Below, one piece after another: positions 33,301-39,300 of a stretch of 64,000 nt of DNA. The position numbers were made by a program. How positions within the stretch are numbered: position 1 is the first letter of the stretch; every line of letters starts with the position of its first letter. Source of the stretch: Bdellovibrionales bacterium (GTDB lineage Bacteria > Bdellovibrionota > Bdellovibrionia > Bdellovibrionales > UBA1609); assembly GCA_965205945.1 (NCBI GenBank), contig CBDBIB010000003.1, forward strand, positions 32,001-96,000, given 5' to 3'.

Positions 33301-36300
33301 CCAAGCTGTAAAAGTTTTTTGTTAGGATTTTTTAAAAAAACATCTGCAAATTCAAAAGTGTATGCTTTTTTTAAGAGATCTGTTTTACAAAGGGTTTTTA
33401 GTAAAAGAGCTTCTGGATGACTTATAAAAACCTTAGTATCTGATGCTGGATTAAGGGCTTGGTATAAGAAACGAAGCCTGTTTGGGGAAATGTGAGAACT
33501 AGGTTCTAATTCAGAATACGGGCTTGTCCCAAAGGAGTGTAGTTGATGAAAATCAATGGATAATGAGTGAGTATAGTTATCAACAGAATCTTCATCAGGA
33601 AAGATGAGTAGATATTTTTGTTTTTTTTTACTCTCCTTAATTATATTGAGTAAAGGGTCTTGAATGGCCAAAGGGTCGTGTATTCCAGAAAGTACAGATG
33701 GTCCTTGGTCAAGGCATCGTCGTAAAATATTAGAACCCTTTAAAAAATCCATTGGTTAATTTAAATACATGAAAAAAAACGAATTTACCAGATACTTTGT
33801 AAATTTGTTTAATTTAGATATTATAAAGTAGTATAAAATTTAATTAAAGGAGGAGGGGGCCTTGCTATTAGTTTTTTAATTTTATTTTAAACTTTTAAGT
33901 AGATATGATGGTTGTAAGTTTTTCTCAAAATACATTGTTTTTTTTCTTCCTAGCAGGTTTTATTGTGGCAATGGCTTTAGGTGTTCTTTTTATTAGAAAT
34001 ACTATAGGAGCACTATTGTTTTTAGTGGTTAGTATGCTTGCAATAGGTGTGTTGTTTCTTGCTCAAGGCGCAGTTTTTTTAGGTAGTATGCAGTTGGTAG
34101 TTTATACTGGAGTTATTATGACCTTATTCTTAAAGGTTTTTATGTCTGTGGACATAGATAAGATCACTTATAAGGCTTTAAAAGAAAAACCATTTATAGG
34201 AAAATTTATAAAAGTAGGCGCAGTAGGTGCTATTTTAGGCTTGTCCTTAGGTGCATTTTCTTTAAAAACATACACTAATTTTTATCAAAAGGATTTAAGT
34301 ATTATGAGTTTAGTAGAGAATTTGATGTTAATGCTTTTTACAAGCTATATATTTGTATTTAAAATAATGGGAGTGTTTATTTTAGTTATATCTGTAGCAG
34401 TTATGAGTGTAAATAAATTAGAGAAAGATTAATTATAATGGGGATAGAGTATATTTTTAATATAACCTTACAGCATTATCTTTCATTAGGATTTTTACTT
34501 TTTTCTATAGGTCTTTTGATTGTGATGGTTAAGAAAAATTTCTTAATCATACTTATGGGTATTGAGTTAATGTTAAATGGGGTTAATGTGATAGCCATTT
34601 CTTTTGGGCACTATAATAGTAATATAGAGGGTCAGGTATTTGCATTTTTTGTTCTTATGATTGCAGTAGCAAAGATTGGTGTGGGGTTAATAATAATTGT
34701 TTCTTTATTTAAAAATACTCAACTTTCTACTTTAATAAAGTTAAAGGATTAGTGACGGTGAACTCTTGGTTATTAAGTGGTTTTTTCATAGTTCCTTTTT
34801 TAAGCTTTATTATAAATAAAATTTTGTATAAAAGAAAAAATATTTTATGGGCAAGATTTTTTAGTTTAAGCAGTGTTTTGATTTTGTTTGTACTTTCTTG
34901 TGTGTTATTTCTTAGGTTTTATTTAAGTGATCAACTTAGTATTGATCTAAAACTCTTCTCCTGGTTATTAATAAAAGGTGTAGATATAGATTTTGCAATT
35001 AGTGTATTAACTTTAGTATATTTTGTAACTATGGCTACTGCAGGAGTTTATGTTTTATTTAGATTAAATGGTCTTTTAGATGTTTCTTTTGAGGCGATGC
35101 TAGTGGTTGCTTTTTTTGGAATTTTAACAGCTTTTATAGCTGCAGTTGCAGCTCTTATTCAACAAGATATAAAGAAAATTCTAGCATATTCTACAGTACC
35201 TCAGCTTGGTTATATGATCCTTGCTATTGGATTGGGTTCATATGTTAGCGCGGTTTTTCATTTAGTAACGCATGTTTTTTTTAAGAGTTTGATGTTCTTA
35301 GGTGCTGGAGTAGTGATTCGTAGTTTATCAGGTGAACAGAATATAGAAAAGATGGGGGATTAAAAAAATCTATGTCGTTCATCTATTTTATTTTTTTAAT
35401 AGGTTGGTTTTTGATTATTGGAGTTCCTTTTTTTTCTGGGTTTTTTAGTGAAAATAAAATATTTTTTCATGCGTTTTTTAATTCAATATTCTTTGGGAGT
35501 CTTTTTCTAGTTACTTTGGGTGTGACAGTATTTTATATGACAAAATTAATGATTAAGGTTTTTGGAGGAGAAAGTAGGGTAGAAAAAAATGTTTACTCAC
35601 ATAAAGTAAGGTTTTTATTTATTTCTCCTTTAGTAATTTTAGCTATTTGTTTAGTACTTACAGGATTTTTAGGGTTACCAAATATGTTTTTAAAATATCC
35701 AGTTCATTTATTAGGAGAATGGCTTAATCCTATGATAAAAACCATCCACTACACTAATAAAAATCTAATCTTAGAAGGATTATTGATGTGTGTGTTTATT
35801 TTAACTATTACAGTGTGTAGTATTTTTGCATATTTCTTATATGTGAAAAAAGAAGATAGGGTTATAAGGGGATTTTCTTATGTTAAACACCCTTTTTTTA
35901 TTAGGTTTTTTAGAAATCTGGTGGATATAAAAGATTTTTATAAGAAAAATGTTATAAATTTGTTTAAAGAAGTTACTCAGGCTTTGTGGTTATTCATAGA
36001 CATTAATTTAATCAATAGATTTTTTGTATCAATATCAAAATCTATTATTAGTATTGGAGAAATCAGTAGAATTATTAAATCTAAAAACCTGCAAATTGAT
36101 GTTACGCTTTTTGTTCTCACGGTTGTGATATTTTTAATGGAGGCTCTTTTTATAAGAGAATAAAATAATGATACTAACAAATTTATTATGGTCGCCGATT
36201 TTTTTTATTCTTCTGCTTCTCTTTTTTAAAAAAGATCATTACTTAAAAGTATTAGGATTTAGTTTGTCAGTAATGCATTTTTTTTATGGAGTTTTTATTT

Positions 36301-39300
36301 GTACTAGATTTGAGATTGAAAATAAAAACTACCAGATGATCGAGCTGGCAAGCATTTTTAAGCCTTTAGGGATGCACTATAGTTTAGGTGTAGATGGATT
36401 AAGTCTTTTATTGATTATGTTCTCACTTTTTATGATGCCCTTAATTATATTAGGCACATGGAATTTTATGGGGATTAGAGTAAAATCTTATTTTATAAAC
36501 TTATTTGCTTTACAAATTTGCATGATTGGAATTCTTCTTTCATTAGATTTAATTTTATTTTATATGTTTTTTGAATTAAGTTTAATTCCAATATTTTTAT
36601 TAATGGGAATGTATGGTGGAAAGAAAAATTTTTCTGCAGCAAAAATATTTTTTCTCTTTATTTTTGTAAGTTCAATTTTTCTAATGGGCTCGATTGTTAC
36701 GATGATGGTTTTATTTGAATCTGTGAACGGAGTTATAAGTTCTTTAATAATAGATCTTCAAACTATTCAATTACCATTTGTAAAAAATACGGTTTTTTCA
36801 ACACAAACCGTTTTATTTTCAGGATTTTTCATAGCTTTTGCAGTAAGAGCAGCGCTTTTTCCACTGCATACTTGGCTACCAAATACTCACGTTAAAACCT
36901 CAACAGGGGGGTCTATTGTTTTAGAAATCTTGATGTTAAATATTGGGGCTTATGGGATGATTAGATTTTTAAGCTTGTACTTTCCACAAGCAAGCTCACA
37001 GTATGCTTGGGTGGTTTGTATATTAGCAATTATAGGGATTATTTATAGTGCTATGATCACTTTTTCTCAAACAGATATGAAGAGGTTTGTGGCATATTTG
37101 TCTGTTTTTCATATGGGATATATAGTTTTAGGTATTTTTTGTTGGGATACGGTTTCTTATAAGGGAGTTTTGTTTCAAATGTTGAGTCGTGGATTAAGTA
37201 CAGGGGGATTGTTTTTAATGATTGGAATGCTTTATGAAAGATTTAAAACAAGGCAAATAAAAGATTTTGGAGGGTTGGTAAAAACTATGCCAAACTTTAC
37301 TATTTATTTTTTATTGATTTCTCTTACAAGTATGGCAGTGCCGTTAACAAATGGTTTTATAGGGAATTTTTTAATTCTTTTTGGAGTATTTGCTACAAAT
37401 AAATATTATGGAATCTTTGCAGTTTTTGGAATATGTTTAATAGCAGGGTCTATGTCAAATATGATTAGAAAGGTTTTTTTTGGTGCTCTATCAGACAAAT
37501 TTAGTCATTTAAGTGATGTTGATTTGTCAAAAAGAGAAATGTTTGTACTCACTCCCATAGTGATTTTAATTTTTTTAATGGGGATTTATCCTAAAAGTAT
37601 TACAAGTTTTTTAACTAAGAGTAATCAAGAGATAGAAAGTCTACAGGTGAGAGGGGATGATTATGTTATTCAATAGTCTTTCTTTAATTGATTTATATTT
37701 AGTATCTCCAGGAATTTGTCTTTTTTTAAGTTCAATTTTAATATTGTTTATTAAAATTTTATCAAAAAATAAAGAACCTAAAAAAGGAATAACGGCAGGT
37801 TTTGCATTTGGAGGTGTTTTATCAGCTTGTTTGTTGAGCACATCTGTTTTTCAATCATTAGGTGGCAAACAGTTTTTTGCATTTAATAATGTTCTTATTT
37901 TTAGTCCTTTTACGTATTGGGTGGGAATGGCGCTTTTATTGGGGGCTGTTTTTTCCATAGTGCTTTTTAAAAAGAATAAAGGAATTAGAGGAGAGCAGTT
38001 TTCTGAATTTTTATTTTTATTTTTAAGCTCTGTATTGGGTGCTTTTGTTATTTTATGGAGTAATAATTTTTTAGTACTTTTTATAGGTATTCAACTAGTT
38101 GCCCTGCCTTTATATATCATGATTTTACTTGGTTGCCTTGATGCAAGTAAGAAAGAGTCTGTAGCAAAGTATTATATTTTAGATAGTGTAGTTTCAGCTT
38201 TTTTTCTTTTAGGACTTGTGTTGGTATACGGCTCTTTGATAGGACAATTTAAAGACGAAGTTTTTTTTAATATAGAGGGGCTTTTAGAGGTTTCTTTAAT
38301 CCTTATGAAGACAGATTATTTATTCTTGATTGGGTCAATATTTATGTTACTTTCAGCTCTTTTTAAATTAGGTGTTGTTCCTTTTCATAACTGGGTTTTA
38401 GATATATGTTATCAAGCCAATACAGCAGTAACATATTACATGATAACGGTTGTAAAAATCACAGCGATTCTTTTCATATTTAAACTAATGAGTGCAGGGT
38501 TTTTAATGGAAAATTATTTTTTTCAACAAACAATTCAGTGGATAGTGGTTTTATCAATGTTACTAGGTGCTCTTTTTGCTTGTTCTCAAGAAAGTGTTAA
38601 AAAAATATTTGTCTACTCAGGGTTAACTCAATTAAGTTATATGTTGATGCCTTTACTAGGTTACAGTTTTGATGGAAAAGGTAGCGTGGATGCTCTTGTT
38701 TTTTATTTTTTCTCATATATCTTTTTTTTAGGCTTAGTTTTTTATATCCTTCAAAAACTTGAAGAACAAAAAGGGGCTGATGTGATAGTTTCTGATTTAA
38801 TAGGTTTACATCAAAGGTGGCCTAAAGAATCCTTAGTACTCTTATTAGGTATTTTAGGCTTATCAGGAATGCCTCCATTAGTAGGCTTTATTACTAGAGT
38901 TTATATCATTAAAACTTCTATAGAAACGGGTTTTTATTGGGTTTCTTTTTGGGCTTTGTTAGCTAGCGCGATGAGTATGGTTTATTATTTAAAAATAATA
39001 AACAAAATTTTTATCTATGATTTTAATCAACAGCTTCATATTTTATGGGAGAATCGTTTAGTTCAAAAAACTTTTTGTATTAAAGGGGTTTTATCGTTAT
39101 CAATCCTTGTGGGGGTTTCAGTAATATCGATTTATTATTTTCCTTTAAATTCATAGCCTCTAAGACTGTTCATTGCAGCTTTAAAGCCAACAGTGATAAT
39201 CTTATTTAAGACCTTAGGTTTTAAGGAAAAATGATCGGCAGAAAACATTTCATAATCTTGTGAACTCGGATTAATATATAAAATTTTAGTATTGCGATCA

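Follow-up and report, generated by a model that had tools for sequence, protein, structure and literature searches.

What is left of complex I (NDH-1) beside mfd in this member of the Bdellovibrionales, a relative of predatory bacteria, and is it a wreck or a relic? The source genome (G000) comprises 1.87 Mb in 5 contigs and is 97.3% complete. We analysed a 64,000-nt stretch of it, referred to as the window, in which ORFs and Pfam matches give the gene order mfd(−), nuoJ, nuoK, nuoL in two pieces, nuoM, nuoN, patatin(−). All positions are window coordinates; subtracting 32,000 from them leads to unrelated ORFs.

30282-33752, minus strand: mfd, transcription-repair coupling factor (Pfam DEAD, TRCF, UvrB_inter, CarD_TRCF_RID)
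33797-33824, plus strand: promoter-like site TTGTAA-16 nt-TATTAT in the old mfd-nuoA spacer (consensus scan and alignment)
33847-33879, plus strand: nuoA start remnant (aligned with the nuoA starts of G001 and G002 and the G003 spacer)
33905-34432, plus strand: nuoJ, 175 aa (Pfam Oxidored_q3)
34438-34752, plus strand: nuoK, 104 aa (Pfam Oxidored_q2)
34752-35363, plus strand: nuoL piece a, GTG start, 203 aa (Pfam Proton_antipo_M, match confined to model positions 121-236)
35354-35358, plus strand: G5 homopolymer with the -1 frameshift dividing nuoL (sequence and translation)
35372-36163, plus strand: nuoL piece b, 263 aa, C-terminal (Pfam Proton_antipo_C; NCBIfam NuoL model positions 370-610)
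36168-37676, plus strand: nuoM, 502 aa (Pfam Proton_antipo_M, 199 bits)
37657-39156, plus strand: nuoN, 499 aa (Pfam match, 132 bits)
39135-40373, minus strand: patatin-like phospholipase gene (Pfam Patatin)

Synteny across loci identifies both neighbours as conserved: mfd lies divergently beside the membrane-arm nuo operon in the order, adjoining nuoA in 16 of 18 other loci, and the patatin gene is its convergent neighbour downstream. At its two ends nuoN runs into its neighbours, sharing 20 nt with nuoM and 22 nt with the 3' end of the patatin gene; the overlaps between genes are conserved, as is the promoter-like site. The block resembles the membrane arm of bacterial NDH-1 (PDB 8qby chain M, 3rko) in its Pfam and NCBIfam families, its gene order and its overlapping boundaries, as in intact relatives, and NuoM matches 8qby_M over residues 27-480 (E 5.6e-95). 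It differs in that the genome lacks NuoA/H, the Q-module and the N-module, the TM7 Lys, TM8 Lys and TM12 Glu of NuoM are replaced, and NuoL is truncated and frameshifted.

Loss of the peripheral arm in a genome with Na+-NQR

ORFs, Pfam matches and genome searches confirmed the first-pass annotation of a headless nuoJKLMN block beside mfd, without NuoA, H, B, CD, E, F, G or I. A six-frame search of the genome gave no match to NuoD (PF00346) or NuoH (PF00146). NuoA and NuoH of the congener G001 found no tblastn hit in the genome at E<=1e-3, and NuoB, CD, E, F, G and I of G001, for which the query ORFs were named by Pfam, found none at E<=1e-5. The six-gene NQR had been called complete, and it is: nqrA-F and apbE are all present, with all six subunits above NCBIfam equivalog cut-offs. 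The proposed lineage without peripheral arm and NuoA/H, and with a complete Na+-NQR, is supported. Earlier counts were also reproduced, with NuoD in 101 of 108 other family genomes and NqrA in 3 of 4 congeners, 5 of 108 family genomes and 12 of 383 other genomes of the order (6 and 14 if two 27-bit hits are kept). NuoD is absent from 6/13 genomes with a strong NqrA match versus 17/371 of the rest of the order, several of these 17 being assembly gaps; these counts support the statement that NQR goes with NuoD loss across the order.

The order carries its complex I genes in two operons, nuoB-CD-E-F-G-I and nuoA-H-J-K-L-M-N; the second layout was found in 18/18 other loci. In G001 and G002 nuoB-I lie just upstream of recO, with a thiolase gene upstream in G002; in G000 the scar consists of the thiolase gene, 227 nt and then recO, as if the first operon had been excised cleanly. 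At the second operon, alignment to G001, G002 and G003 indicates that entire nuoH and all of nuoA except its start (the old SD site, a TTG start, four more codons and a TAA stop) were deleted in G000. This cut would have left nuoJKLMN behind the old nuoA promoter, and NADH would now be fed into the chain through Na+-NQR in place of NDH-1.

The consensus scan found one promoter-like site against 1.7 expected, a count that is not significant alone. Both hexamers fall in invariant or near-invariant columns when G000, G003, G001 and G002 are aligned, and G000 and G003 share 88% identity over the first 106 nt of the spacer; nuoJ-N are probably still driven by TTGTAA-16 nt-TATTAT. The spacer before nuoJ is 152 nt long in G000, against 305 nt in G003, and alignment of the start regions shows that G000 nuoJ has lost its own SD site through a further deletion of ~140 nt relative to G003.

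Lesions in the block

nuoL had been reported as split in two pieces. The split stands, but it is not the only lesion: when piece a is aligned to NuoL of G003, G001 and G002, ~170 codons are also missing in frame, with the junction near 35003/35004. Lost with these codons are the Proton_antipo_N domain and TM3-7, with the TM5 Glu and TM7 Lys that they carry, and the TIGR01974 match starts only at model position 253. The split itself is a -1 frameshift in the G5 run, with a stop at 35361-35363 and the next ATG at 35372; with one extra G, the frame would read the MGGLKKSM motif, as in G003 and G001. Piece b is still open, its TM12 Lys-Asp pair now being Glu-Asn in the residue table, and NuoL falls below its NCBIfam cut-off.

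The first-pass annotation had allowed that this split might be an assembly indel. Both frameshifts, that of G000 and that of G003, lie in homopolymer runs and may stem from assembly. An error is less likely in G000, as Logan contigs of two runs (X1, X2; one sample) show 0 differences from the window at the frameshift and a sample of 20 other distinct G000 genes contained no split one. A broader version, in which the missing nuo genes also reside in unassembled DNA, can draw on the 97.3% completeness, the five contigs and the frameshifted ribosomal protein genes given in the earlier note only. It is extremely improbable, however: the two places where genes were deleted are assembled without a break within a single 838-kb contig and keep their conserved flanks (mfd/nuoJ and thiolase/recO), and the independent assembly of G003 has the same absences.

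The other four reading frames are open. According to the residue table and the alignment to 8qby_M, NuoM retains the TM5 Glu and carries TM7 Lys->Arg, TM8 Lys->Asn, TM11 His->Arg and TM12 Glu->Asn, with 37/126 order-invariant sites altered. NuoN carries TM5 Glu->Gln and TM12 Lys->Arg and scores under the NCBIfam TIGR01770 cut-off; by crude hydropathy both proteins have 13-14 hydrophobic segments, like intact orthologues. NuoJ scores 56 bits against Oxidored_q3 (87 bits in G001) and is under every NCBIfam NuoJ cut-off, and NuoK passes NF004320 with its TM3 Glu replaced by Lys. With no electron input, quinone site or NuoH/A channel the relic cannot act as complex I, and because several central-axis Lys/Glu residues are replaced it would no longer be a canonical proton pump.

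NuoL/M/N, NuoK and NuoJ are homologues of MrpA/D and MrpC, and the five proteins might form a stand-alone Mrp-like cation/proton antiporter, coupling the Na+ gradient of NQR to a proton gradient. Mrp-type multisubunit antiporters share this ancestry and have no redox module, the PDB matches to NuoM include Mrp and MBH subunits, the organism possesses a Na+-pumping NADH dehydrogenase, and no further PF00361 protein occurs in the genome. We nevertheless regard this as very unlikely. The charged residues essential in antiporter-like subunits are replaced in NuoM of both G000 and G003, and in G000 also in NuoN, NuoK and NuoJ, and are replaced or deleted in NuoL; elsewhere the genome has a CPA-type Na+/H+ exchanger gene (C1:549406-550497). 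Counterparts of MrpB/E/F/G were not found at the nuoJ-N locus, though no genome-wide search was aimed at them.

A sister genome and the age of the loss

G003 carries the same headless block, a state known from these two genomes only. Their Mfd proteins are 86% identical (dS 0.52), and a quick Mfd tree gives SH-aLRT 100 both for the pair and for the pair with G001. Among 271 sites without variation in 18 other genomes, 30 have changed to an identical residue in G000 and G003, 14 have changed in both to differing residues, and 20 and 21 are altered in G000 alone and G003 alone, respectively; the common changes include NuoM TM7 Lys->Arg and TM12 Glu->Asn. Overall 25-40% of order-invariant residues in the block are changed, and invariant ionisable residues are retained at 36/72 positions in G000, 48/72 in G003, 67/72 in G001 and 70/72 in G002. 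The 30 shared identical changes imply that canonical pump function was lost before G000 and G003 split; on this sequence comparison the Lys/Glu replacements predate the divergence, and the deletions most likely do as well.

Alternatively, complex I may have been whole until lately, under relaxed selection because NQR had made it redundant, with the head and nuoA/H lost independently in G000 and G003; on this view the frames would be open because of selection before the loss rather than after it. G001, which has NQR and a complete NDH-1, already shows extra changes (NuoM altered at 14/126 invariant sites versus 3/126 in the NQR-less G002), and the deletion junctions are no proof of a single ancestral event, as the spacer lengths differ and the thiolase gene to the left of the B-I scar is missing in G003. 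This course of events would, however, need two sister lineages to arrive at the same gene set through four separate deletions. In addition, the NuoM TM8 Lys and TM12 Glu were already gone in the common ancestor, what is left of nuoA is badly eroded in G000 and G003 alike, and a working enzyme would have had to tolerate changes at 57/175 invariant sites of G003 nuoL. We consider it unlikely.

Probable purifying selection on the open frames

Between G000 and G003, dN/dS (bootstrap intervals) is 0.14 [0.11-0.17] for Mfd and 0.14 [0.10-0.19] for patatin, compared with 0.65 [0.44-0.97] for NuoJ, 0.40 [0.21-0.74] for NuoK, 0.32 [0.21-0.46] for NuoL piece b, 0.34 [0.26-0.47] for NuoM and 0.27 [0.21-0.34] for NuoN, the minimum of the block. 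From the distance of 0.35 at 4-fold sites, 34-46 nonsense codons would be expected neutrally in nuoJKMN of G000 (1,280 codons) and 46-65 in nuoJKLMN of G003 (1,866 codons); both counts are 0, against 24-40 expected from the 464 nonsynonymous differences between the two genomes. All length differences in nuoJ, K, M and N are in frame. The congener nuoM described as having an in-frame nonsense TAA, that of G003, in fact carries a -1 frameshift in a T7 run.

Could these be dead genes that have yet to gather stops, after the gain of NQR made NDH-1 useless? Several features are as expected of such plain recent pseudogenisation: nuoL is broken twice, key Lys/Glu residues are gone, profile scores are below those of G001 with NuoJ, NuoL and NuoN under NCBIfam cut-offs, dN/dS is 2-4x that of the flanking genes, and other NQR-bearing relatives (G344, G025, G245) have lost everything. 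Against this, nonsense codons are missing where 34-65 are expected, every dN/dS interval lies below 1, the length differences keep frame, and the relaxation is common to G003 and hence old. The stop count already strains this explanation; saving it would take an overestimate of more than ten-fold in the neutral distance separating the two genomes, and we judge it decidedly improbable. The same observations (a block shared with G003, 30 common changes, dN/dS 0.27-0.65 and no nonsense codon) leave the earlier description of a recent loss caught in decay unsupported.

Other reduced complexes

In the NQR-bearing, NuoD-less congener G004, reported to have no NuoM, very diverged NuoM'/NuoN' ORFs lie between mfd and patatin. 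They share with the G000 block the site, the parent subunits, the presence of NQR and the absence of NuoD, but are far more diverged: a Pfam search gave no match to either, G004 has lost nuoJ, nuoK and nuoL, and M' is shortened to about 300 aa. By hhalign, the N' family matches NuoN nearly full length (98.4% probability, E 8.6e-15) and the M' ORF matches NuoM (78% probability, E 1.7e-5). Full-length homologues at 84-87% and 41% identity indicate a conserved family. Of the three stages of loss previously proposed, several reduction states among relatives do exist; the nonsense codon of G003 and the empty locus of G004 do not.

The nuoJKLMN-only state is already known from Orbaceae, and the Bdellovibrionales relic adds another case. 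According to one report, Gilliamella retains nuoJKLMN alone in all 95 genomes, read as remnants of genome reduction, and in Gilliamella and Ca. Schmidhempelia the same five genes are left after the other nine were lost (PMC11325843); nqr is not mentioned in that paper. Orbaceae belong to another phylum with another ancestral operon layout, whereas the deletions here are A-H and B-I. Partial complex I operons without NuoEFG, likewise derivatives missing part of the enzyme, are described for Campylobacter, cyanobacteria and archaea in Spero et al. 2015 (PMC4453560); those retain NuoA-D and H-N and recruit other electron input. G000 has lost the quinone module and NuoH/A too, which, unlike in NuoEFG-less operons, would leave no redox chemistry possible.

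A probable retained relic

We favour, with some confidence, the view that nuoJKLMN is an old, retained relic of the NDH-1 membrane arm under relaxed but real purifying selection, with NADH entry now through Na+-NQR. After the split of G000 and G003 such selection would have kept the five reading frames open, and we infer from this that the cell still produces the proteins and that they still matter to it. Retention could reflect a non-canonical role centred on NuoM/NuoN, or truncated polytopic membrane proteins could be harmful; selection that keeps frames open is not in itself proof of a useful function. In G000 erosion appears to be moving in from the 5' side, with the nuoJ RBS gone and nuoL reduced by ~170 codons and a frameshift. 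As counterpoints to retention, just two genomes have the headless state, and nuoL (deletion, frameshift) and G000 nuoJ (no SD site, dN/dS interval extending to 0.97) are clearly decaying. Taken as a whole, the leftover membrane genes have long stayed readable and so resemble a retained relic rather than fresh wreckage.

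Results

Only five genes of complex I (NDH-1), nuoJ-nuoK-nuoL-nuoM-nuoN, remain in the genome of the window (G000; five contigs, 1.87 Mb, G+C 32.5%), placed between mfd and a patatin gene.

Features of the locus (window positions)
30282-33752, minus strand: mfd, from the Pfam/ORF map
33905-34432, plus strand: nuoJ
34438-34752, plus strand: nuoK
34752-35363, plus strand: nuoL piece a, 203 aa
35372-36163, plus strand: nuoL piece b, 263 aa
36168-37676, plus strand: nuoM
37657-39156, plus strand: nuoN
39135-40373, convergent: patatin gene, downstream of nuoN

All five nuo genes pass the Pfam gathering threshold (Proton_antipo_M, Oxidored_q2 or Oxidored_q3), the NuoL match being partial, and PF00361 in G000 is confined to this locus. 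The curated NCBIfam cut-offs are passed by NuoK (84.5 vs 57) and by the NuoM subfamily model (430 vs 264), and missed by NuoJ (79 vs 192), the two NuoL pieces (171 and 88 vs 407.5) and NuoN (243 vs 333). A promoter-like TTGTAA-16-TATTAT site, the count of which is not significant by itself, lies at 33797-33824 inside a spacer block conserved in four genomes. At their 3' ends, nuoN and the convergent patatin gene share 22 nt (39135-39156).

No six-frame match to the NuoD (PF00346) or NuoH (PF00146) families was obtained in the G000 genome, and NuoF was not found in six-frame searches of G000 and its sister genome, G003. Used as tblastn queries against G000, NuoA and NuoH of the congener G001 gave no match at E<=1e-3, and its NuoB, CD, E, F, G and I, ORFs named by Pfam, gave none at E<=1e-5. 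G000 is without the NADH-oxidising module (NuoE, F, G) and the quinone module (NuoB, C, D, I) of a functional NDH-1, and also without NuoH and NuoA (quinone channel, E-channel). Six Na+-NQR subunits are encoded in one operon, nqrA-F, together with apbE (contig C1:486500-496000; locus L058); all six exceed the NCBIfam equivalog cut-offs, and the ApbE match (263 bits) falls under its own NCBIfam cut-off. The exchange of NDH-1 for Na+-NQR proposed in the first-pass annotation stands on these grounds, with the peripheral arm and NuoA/H absent and nqrA-F complete.

The ancestral layout can be read from relatives. The membrane operon is nuoA-H-J-K-L-M-N in each of the 18 other genomes from the order in which the locus was retrieved; mfd lies divergently upstream of it in 16/18 loci, and patatin lies downstream in most. 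The peripheral arm forms a separate operon, nuoB-CD-E-F-G-I, followed by recO (L035 in G001 and L036 in the congener G002). In the Bdellovibrionales examined, complex I is accordingly divided between two operons, one for membrane and one for peripheral subunits, with nuoC and nuoD fused. A thiolase gene precedes the nuoB-I operon in G002; in G000 the thiolase-recO gap is only 227 nt, on one 838-kb contig, which marks a clean excision of nuoB-I. On the mfd side, G000 keeps a nuoA remnant made up of the old SD (ribosome-binding) site, TTG and four codons, the rest of nuoA and the whole of nuoH being deleted. When the mfd-nuoJ spacers of G000, G003, G001 and G002 and the former nuoB-I site were aligned, the remnants were too eroded and the left flanks differed, so that the junctions are uninformative on one ancestral versus two independent deletions. 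Just upstream of the thiolase by the nuoB-I scar, G000 carries a ~190-380 bp repeat (C3:139722-140096; L037:723-1097), MITE- or IS-remnant-like, that recurs at least 25 times in G003, on four contigs and with 79-86% identity.

The split of nuoL reported in the first-pass annotation was confirmed: a G5 run (35354-35358) carries a -1 frameshift, and one extra G there would restore the MGGLKKSM motif seen in G003 and G001. To it we add a second lesion, in frame, in which ~170 codons (G001 residues ~85-253) are missing; with them have gone Proton_antipo_N and TM3-7, the TM5 Glu and the TM7 Lys among the residues lost. Logan contigs of runs X1 and X2, which are one sample and possibly the source of the assembly, span the G5 run without any difference from the window; run X3 has no coverage of the nuoL break. 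As a check on split genes, 30 ORFs of G003 and G001 were compared with G000, representing 20 distinct non-IS G000 genes besides nuoL, and none was split.

In G003, mfd is followed by nuoJ, nuoK, a whole nuoL (640 aa), nuoM, nuoN and patatin; NuoA/H and NuoD (PF00346) were not found in this genome either. What had been taken for a nonsense TAA in its nuoM is actually a -1 frameshift in a T7 run. The Mfd proteins of G000 and G003 are 86% identical (dS ~0.52), and the four-fold-site distance over Mfd and patatin is 0.35. A quick Mfd tree groups ((G000,G003),G001) with SH-aLRT 100 at both nodes and puts G344 as sister to the genus; the order of G002 and the congener G004 is not settled by this tree. 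The two genomes also have in common an IS3-type transposase pair (G000 C1:10275-11812; G003 L014:5487-7027, adjoining the mfd 3' end), with proteins 98-100% identical against ~86% for housekeeping genes, which suggests an insertion sequence that is shared and active, or that was exchanged recently.

We then compared G000, G003, G001 and G002 at sites invariant in 16 outgroup genomes.

Changed sites among those invariant in 16 outgroup genomes
NuoL: G000 ~39% of covered sites; G003 57/175; G001 9/175; G002 5/175
NuoM: G000 37/126; G003 39/123; G001 14/126; G002 3/126
NuoN: G000 18/58; G003 15/58; G001 9/58; G002 6/58
Patatin (control): G000 11/47; G003 11/47; G001 9/47; G002 8/47

Order-invariant ionisable residues are retained at 36/72 positions in G000, 48/72 in G003, 67/72 in G001 and 70/72 in G002. 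The residues concerned include the Lys/Glu/His chain of NuoL, NuoM and NuoN and the Glu of NuoK, which we take to be the conserved functional residues of complex I. NuoM of both G000 and G003 has Arg for the TM7 Lys, Asn or Thr for the TM8 Lys and Asn for the TM12 Glu (positions checked against PDB 8qby_M). Further changes in G000 are Glu to Gln in NuoN TM5, Glu to Lys in NuoK TM3 and in NuoJ, and Lys-Asp to Glu-Asn in NuoL TM12, so the chain expected of a functional NDH-1 is broken. Among eight genus-level NuoM proteins, the degenerate signature occurs only in G000 and G003; a metagenome scan for close NuoM relatives returned only matches of ~33% identity, none of them useful.

The loss had been described as recent. 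This is contradicted by the headless state common to G000 and G003 and by the pattern of their replacements: of 271 sites without variation in 18 other genomes, 30 carry an identical replacement in both, 14 are altered in both to differing residues, 20 are altered in G000 alone and 21 in G003 alone. Loss of canonical function is old, and parsimony, together with the residue losses common to both genomes, would place both deletions before the G000/G003 split.

Despite this, the reading frames are being kept, with dN/dS raised yet sub-neutral. Between G000 and G003 (bootstrap intervals in brackets), dN/dS is 0.14 (0.11-0.17) for Mfd and 0.14 (0.10-0.19) for patatin; it is 0.65 (0.44-0.97) for NuoJ, 0.40 (0.21-0.74) for NuoK, 0.32 (0.21-0.46) for NuoL piece b, 0.34 (0.26-0.47) for NuoM and 0.27 (0.21-0.34) for NuoN. 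The nuo genes and their flanks have equal dS, so the open frames are not explained by a younger origin through recombination. Under neutral evolution, the four-fold distance and the codon content of the genes predict 34-46 nonsense substitutions in nuoJKMN of G000 and 46-65 in nuoJKLMN of G003; a second estimate for J, K, M and N, from 464 nonsynonymous differences and a nonsense/missense ratio of 0.05-0.087, gives 24-40. None was observed in any of these comparisons. Frameshifts amount to one per genome, both in homopolymers (nuoL in G000, nuoM in G003). The first-pass annotation had the complex caught in decay, and a neutrally decaying pseudogene cluster is what that would mean; dN/dS values of 0.27-0.65 with intervals below 1, and 0 nonsense codons where 24-65 were expected, rule against it. 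Retention is also in line with the promoter-like site described above, with the 13-14 hydrophobic segments that NuoM and NuoN keep by a crude hydropathy count, and with the 20-nt overlap of nuoM and nuoN, which is conserved in G003. The nuoJKLMN proteins are presumably still expressed. Selection would either protect a new role or merely guard against harmful truncated membrane proteins.

NuoD was detected in 361/384 genomes of the order and NqrA in 15, with strong matches in 13. NuoD is absent from 6/13 genomes with strong NqrA (G000, G003, G004, G344, G025 and G245) and from 17/371 others; since related genomes are not independent, about three or four losses underlie the association. G001 carries both NQR and NDH-1, and G002 NDH-1 only. 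G002 is the only congener without NQR and has two NuoD genes (C17:1220-2032 and C7:121951-122763), one being a stand-alone form of 399 aa whose contig is short, the other the usual NuoCD fusion. Three of the 17 genomes with neither NuoD nor a strong NqrA match (G047, G335 and G211) were considered as headless cases and set aside as probable assembly gaps, their NuoM being canonical with 1-3/126 invariant sites changed; NuoF of G211 lies at a contig edge. G047 (a single contig, 90% complete) and G335 have no NuoD or NuoF match though their NuoL, NuoM and NuoN are canonical, with NuoM changed at 1/126 invariant sites.

The other NQR-positive, NuoD-less genomes are reduced further. In G344, only 58 nt separate mfd from patatin and the nuo operon has vanished altogether, and G025 and G245 have neither NuoD nor NuoM. 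G004, whose Mfd is ~50% identical to that of G000, had been listed as having no NuoM; its mfd-patatin interval (L067:6622-8923) in fact holds two ORFs that overlap, M' with 300 aa and N' with 468 aa, neither of which has a match in Pfam. By hhalign, N' as a single sequence matches NuoN at 96.9% probability (E 1.9e-10), a three-member N' family does so at 98.4% (E 8.6e-15) over nearly full length, and M' matches NuoM at 78% (E 1.7e-5). Protein collections contain full-length N' homologues at 84% and 41-42% identity; M' is matched there at 87% over 275 aa, at 41% over its full length and, more weakly, at 24%. These homologues mark M' and N' as conserved genes; a scan of genome contigs for the N' family matched only G004's own record. 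The pair represents a small, very diverged protein family derived from NuoM and NuoN. The arrangement of the N' gene and patatin in G004 is the same as that of nuoN in G000, with an overlap of 28 nt, and the N' family shows no variation in its last eight C-terminal residues, perhaps owing to the patatin gene on the opposite strand. In a different lineage, a further degenerate relic of the membrane arm may be represented by the 486-aa protein P0127, a full-length NuoM homologue (Pfam, 146 bits) in which the TM8 Lys, the TM11 His and the TM12 Glu are all missing.

Discussion

That Na+-NQR takes the place of NDH-1 is nothing unusual in the remodelling of respiratory chains, and leftover nuoJKLMN genes are already known from bee-gut Orbaceae, where they were dismissed as debris. 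A survey of Gilliamella reports nuoJKLMN in every one of 95 genomes and the remaining nine nuo genes in none, and regards the five as remnants of genome reduction (PMC11325843); the word nqr is absent from that paper. Spero et al. 2015 describe partial operons without NuoEFG in which the rest is kept (PMC4453560). Our literature search for published accounts of such relics in Bdellovibrionota found none.

One candidate role is that of an Mrp-type antiporter (MrpA-G), with its charged MrpA/D-like residues. In G000 these charged residues are not conserved, and the genome encodes a CPA-type exchanger at another site; an Mrp-like role is therefore unlikely. We tentatively put forward another reading, which we consider possible though short of probable: the distal antiporter-like subunits, above all NuoM and NuoN, might have a selectable membrane role that needs no redox arm, NuoH/A or canonical Lys/Glu path. 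The operon would then shrink stepwise after NQR takeover, from A-H-J-K-L-M-N to J-K-L-M-N to M'-N', stopping there with the pair kept as a new family; G000 would be an intermediate and the nuoJKLMN-only Orbaceae an independent case.

What is new here are the measurements, which show that the pump residues were lost long ago and that the frames have stayed readable since, and the finding that the last two genes of a related lineage form a conserved family beyond Pfam recognition. If retention reflects function, antiporter-like subunits would act outside complex I and Mrp, which bears on how modules are recruited and shed in the evolution of respiratory complexes. If it reflects only selection against truncated membrane proteins, the block would illustrate clearly why certain relic genes of bacteria outlast their function.
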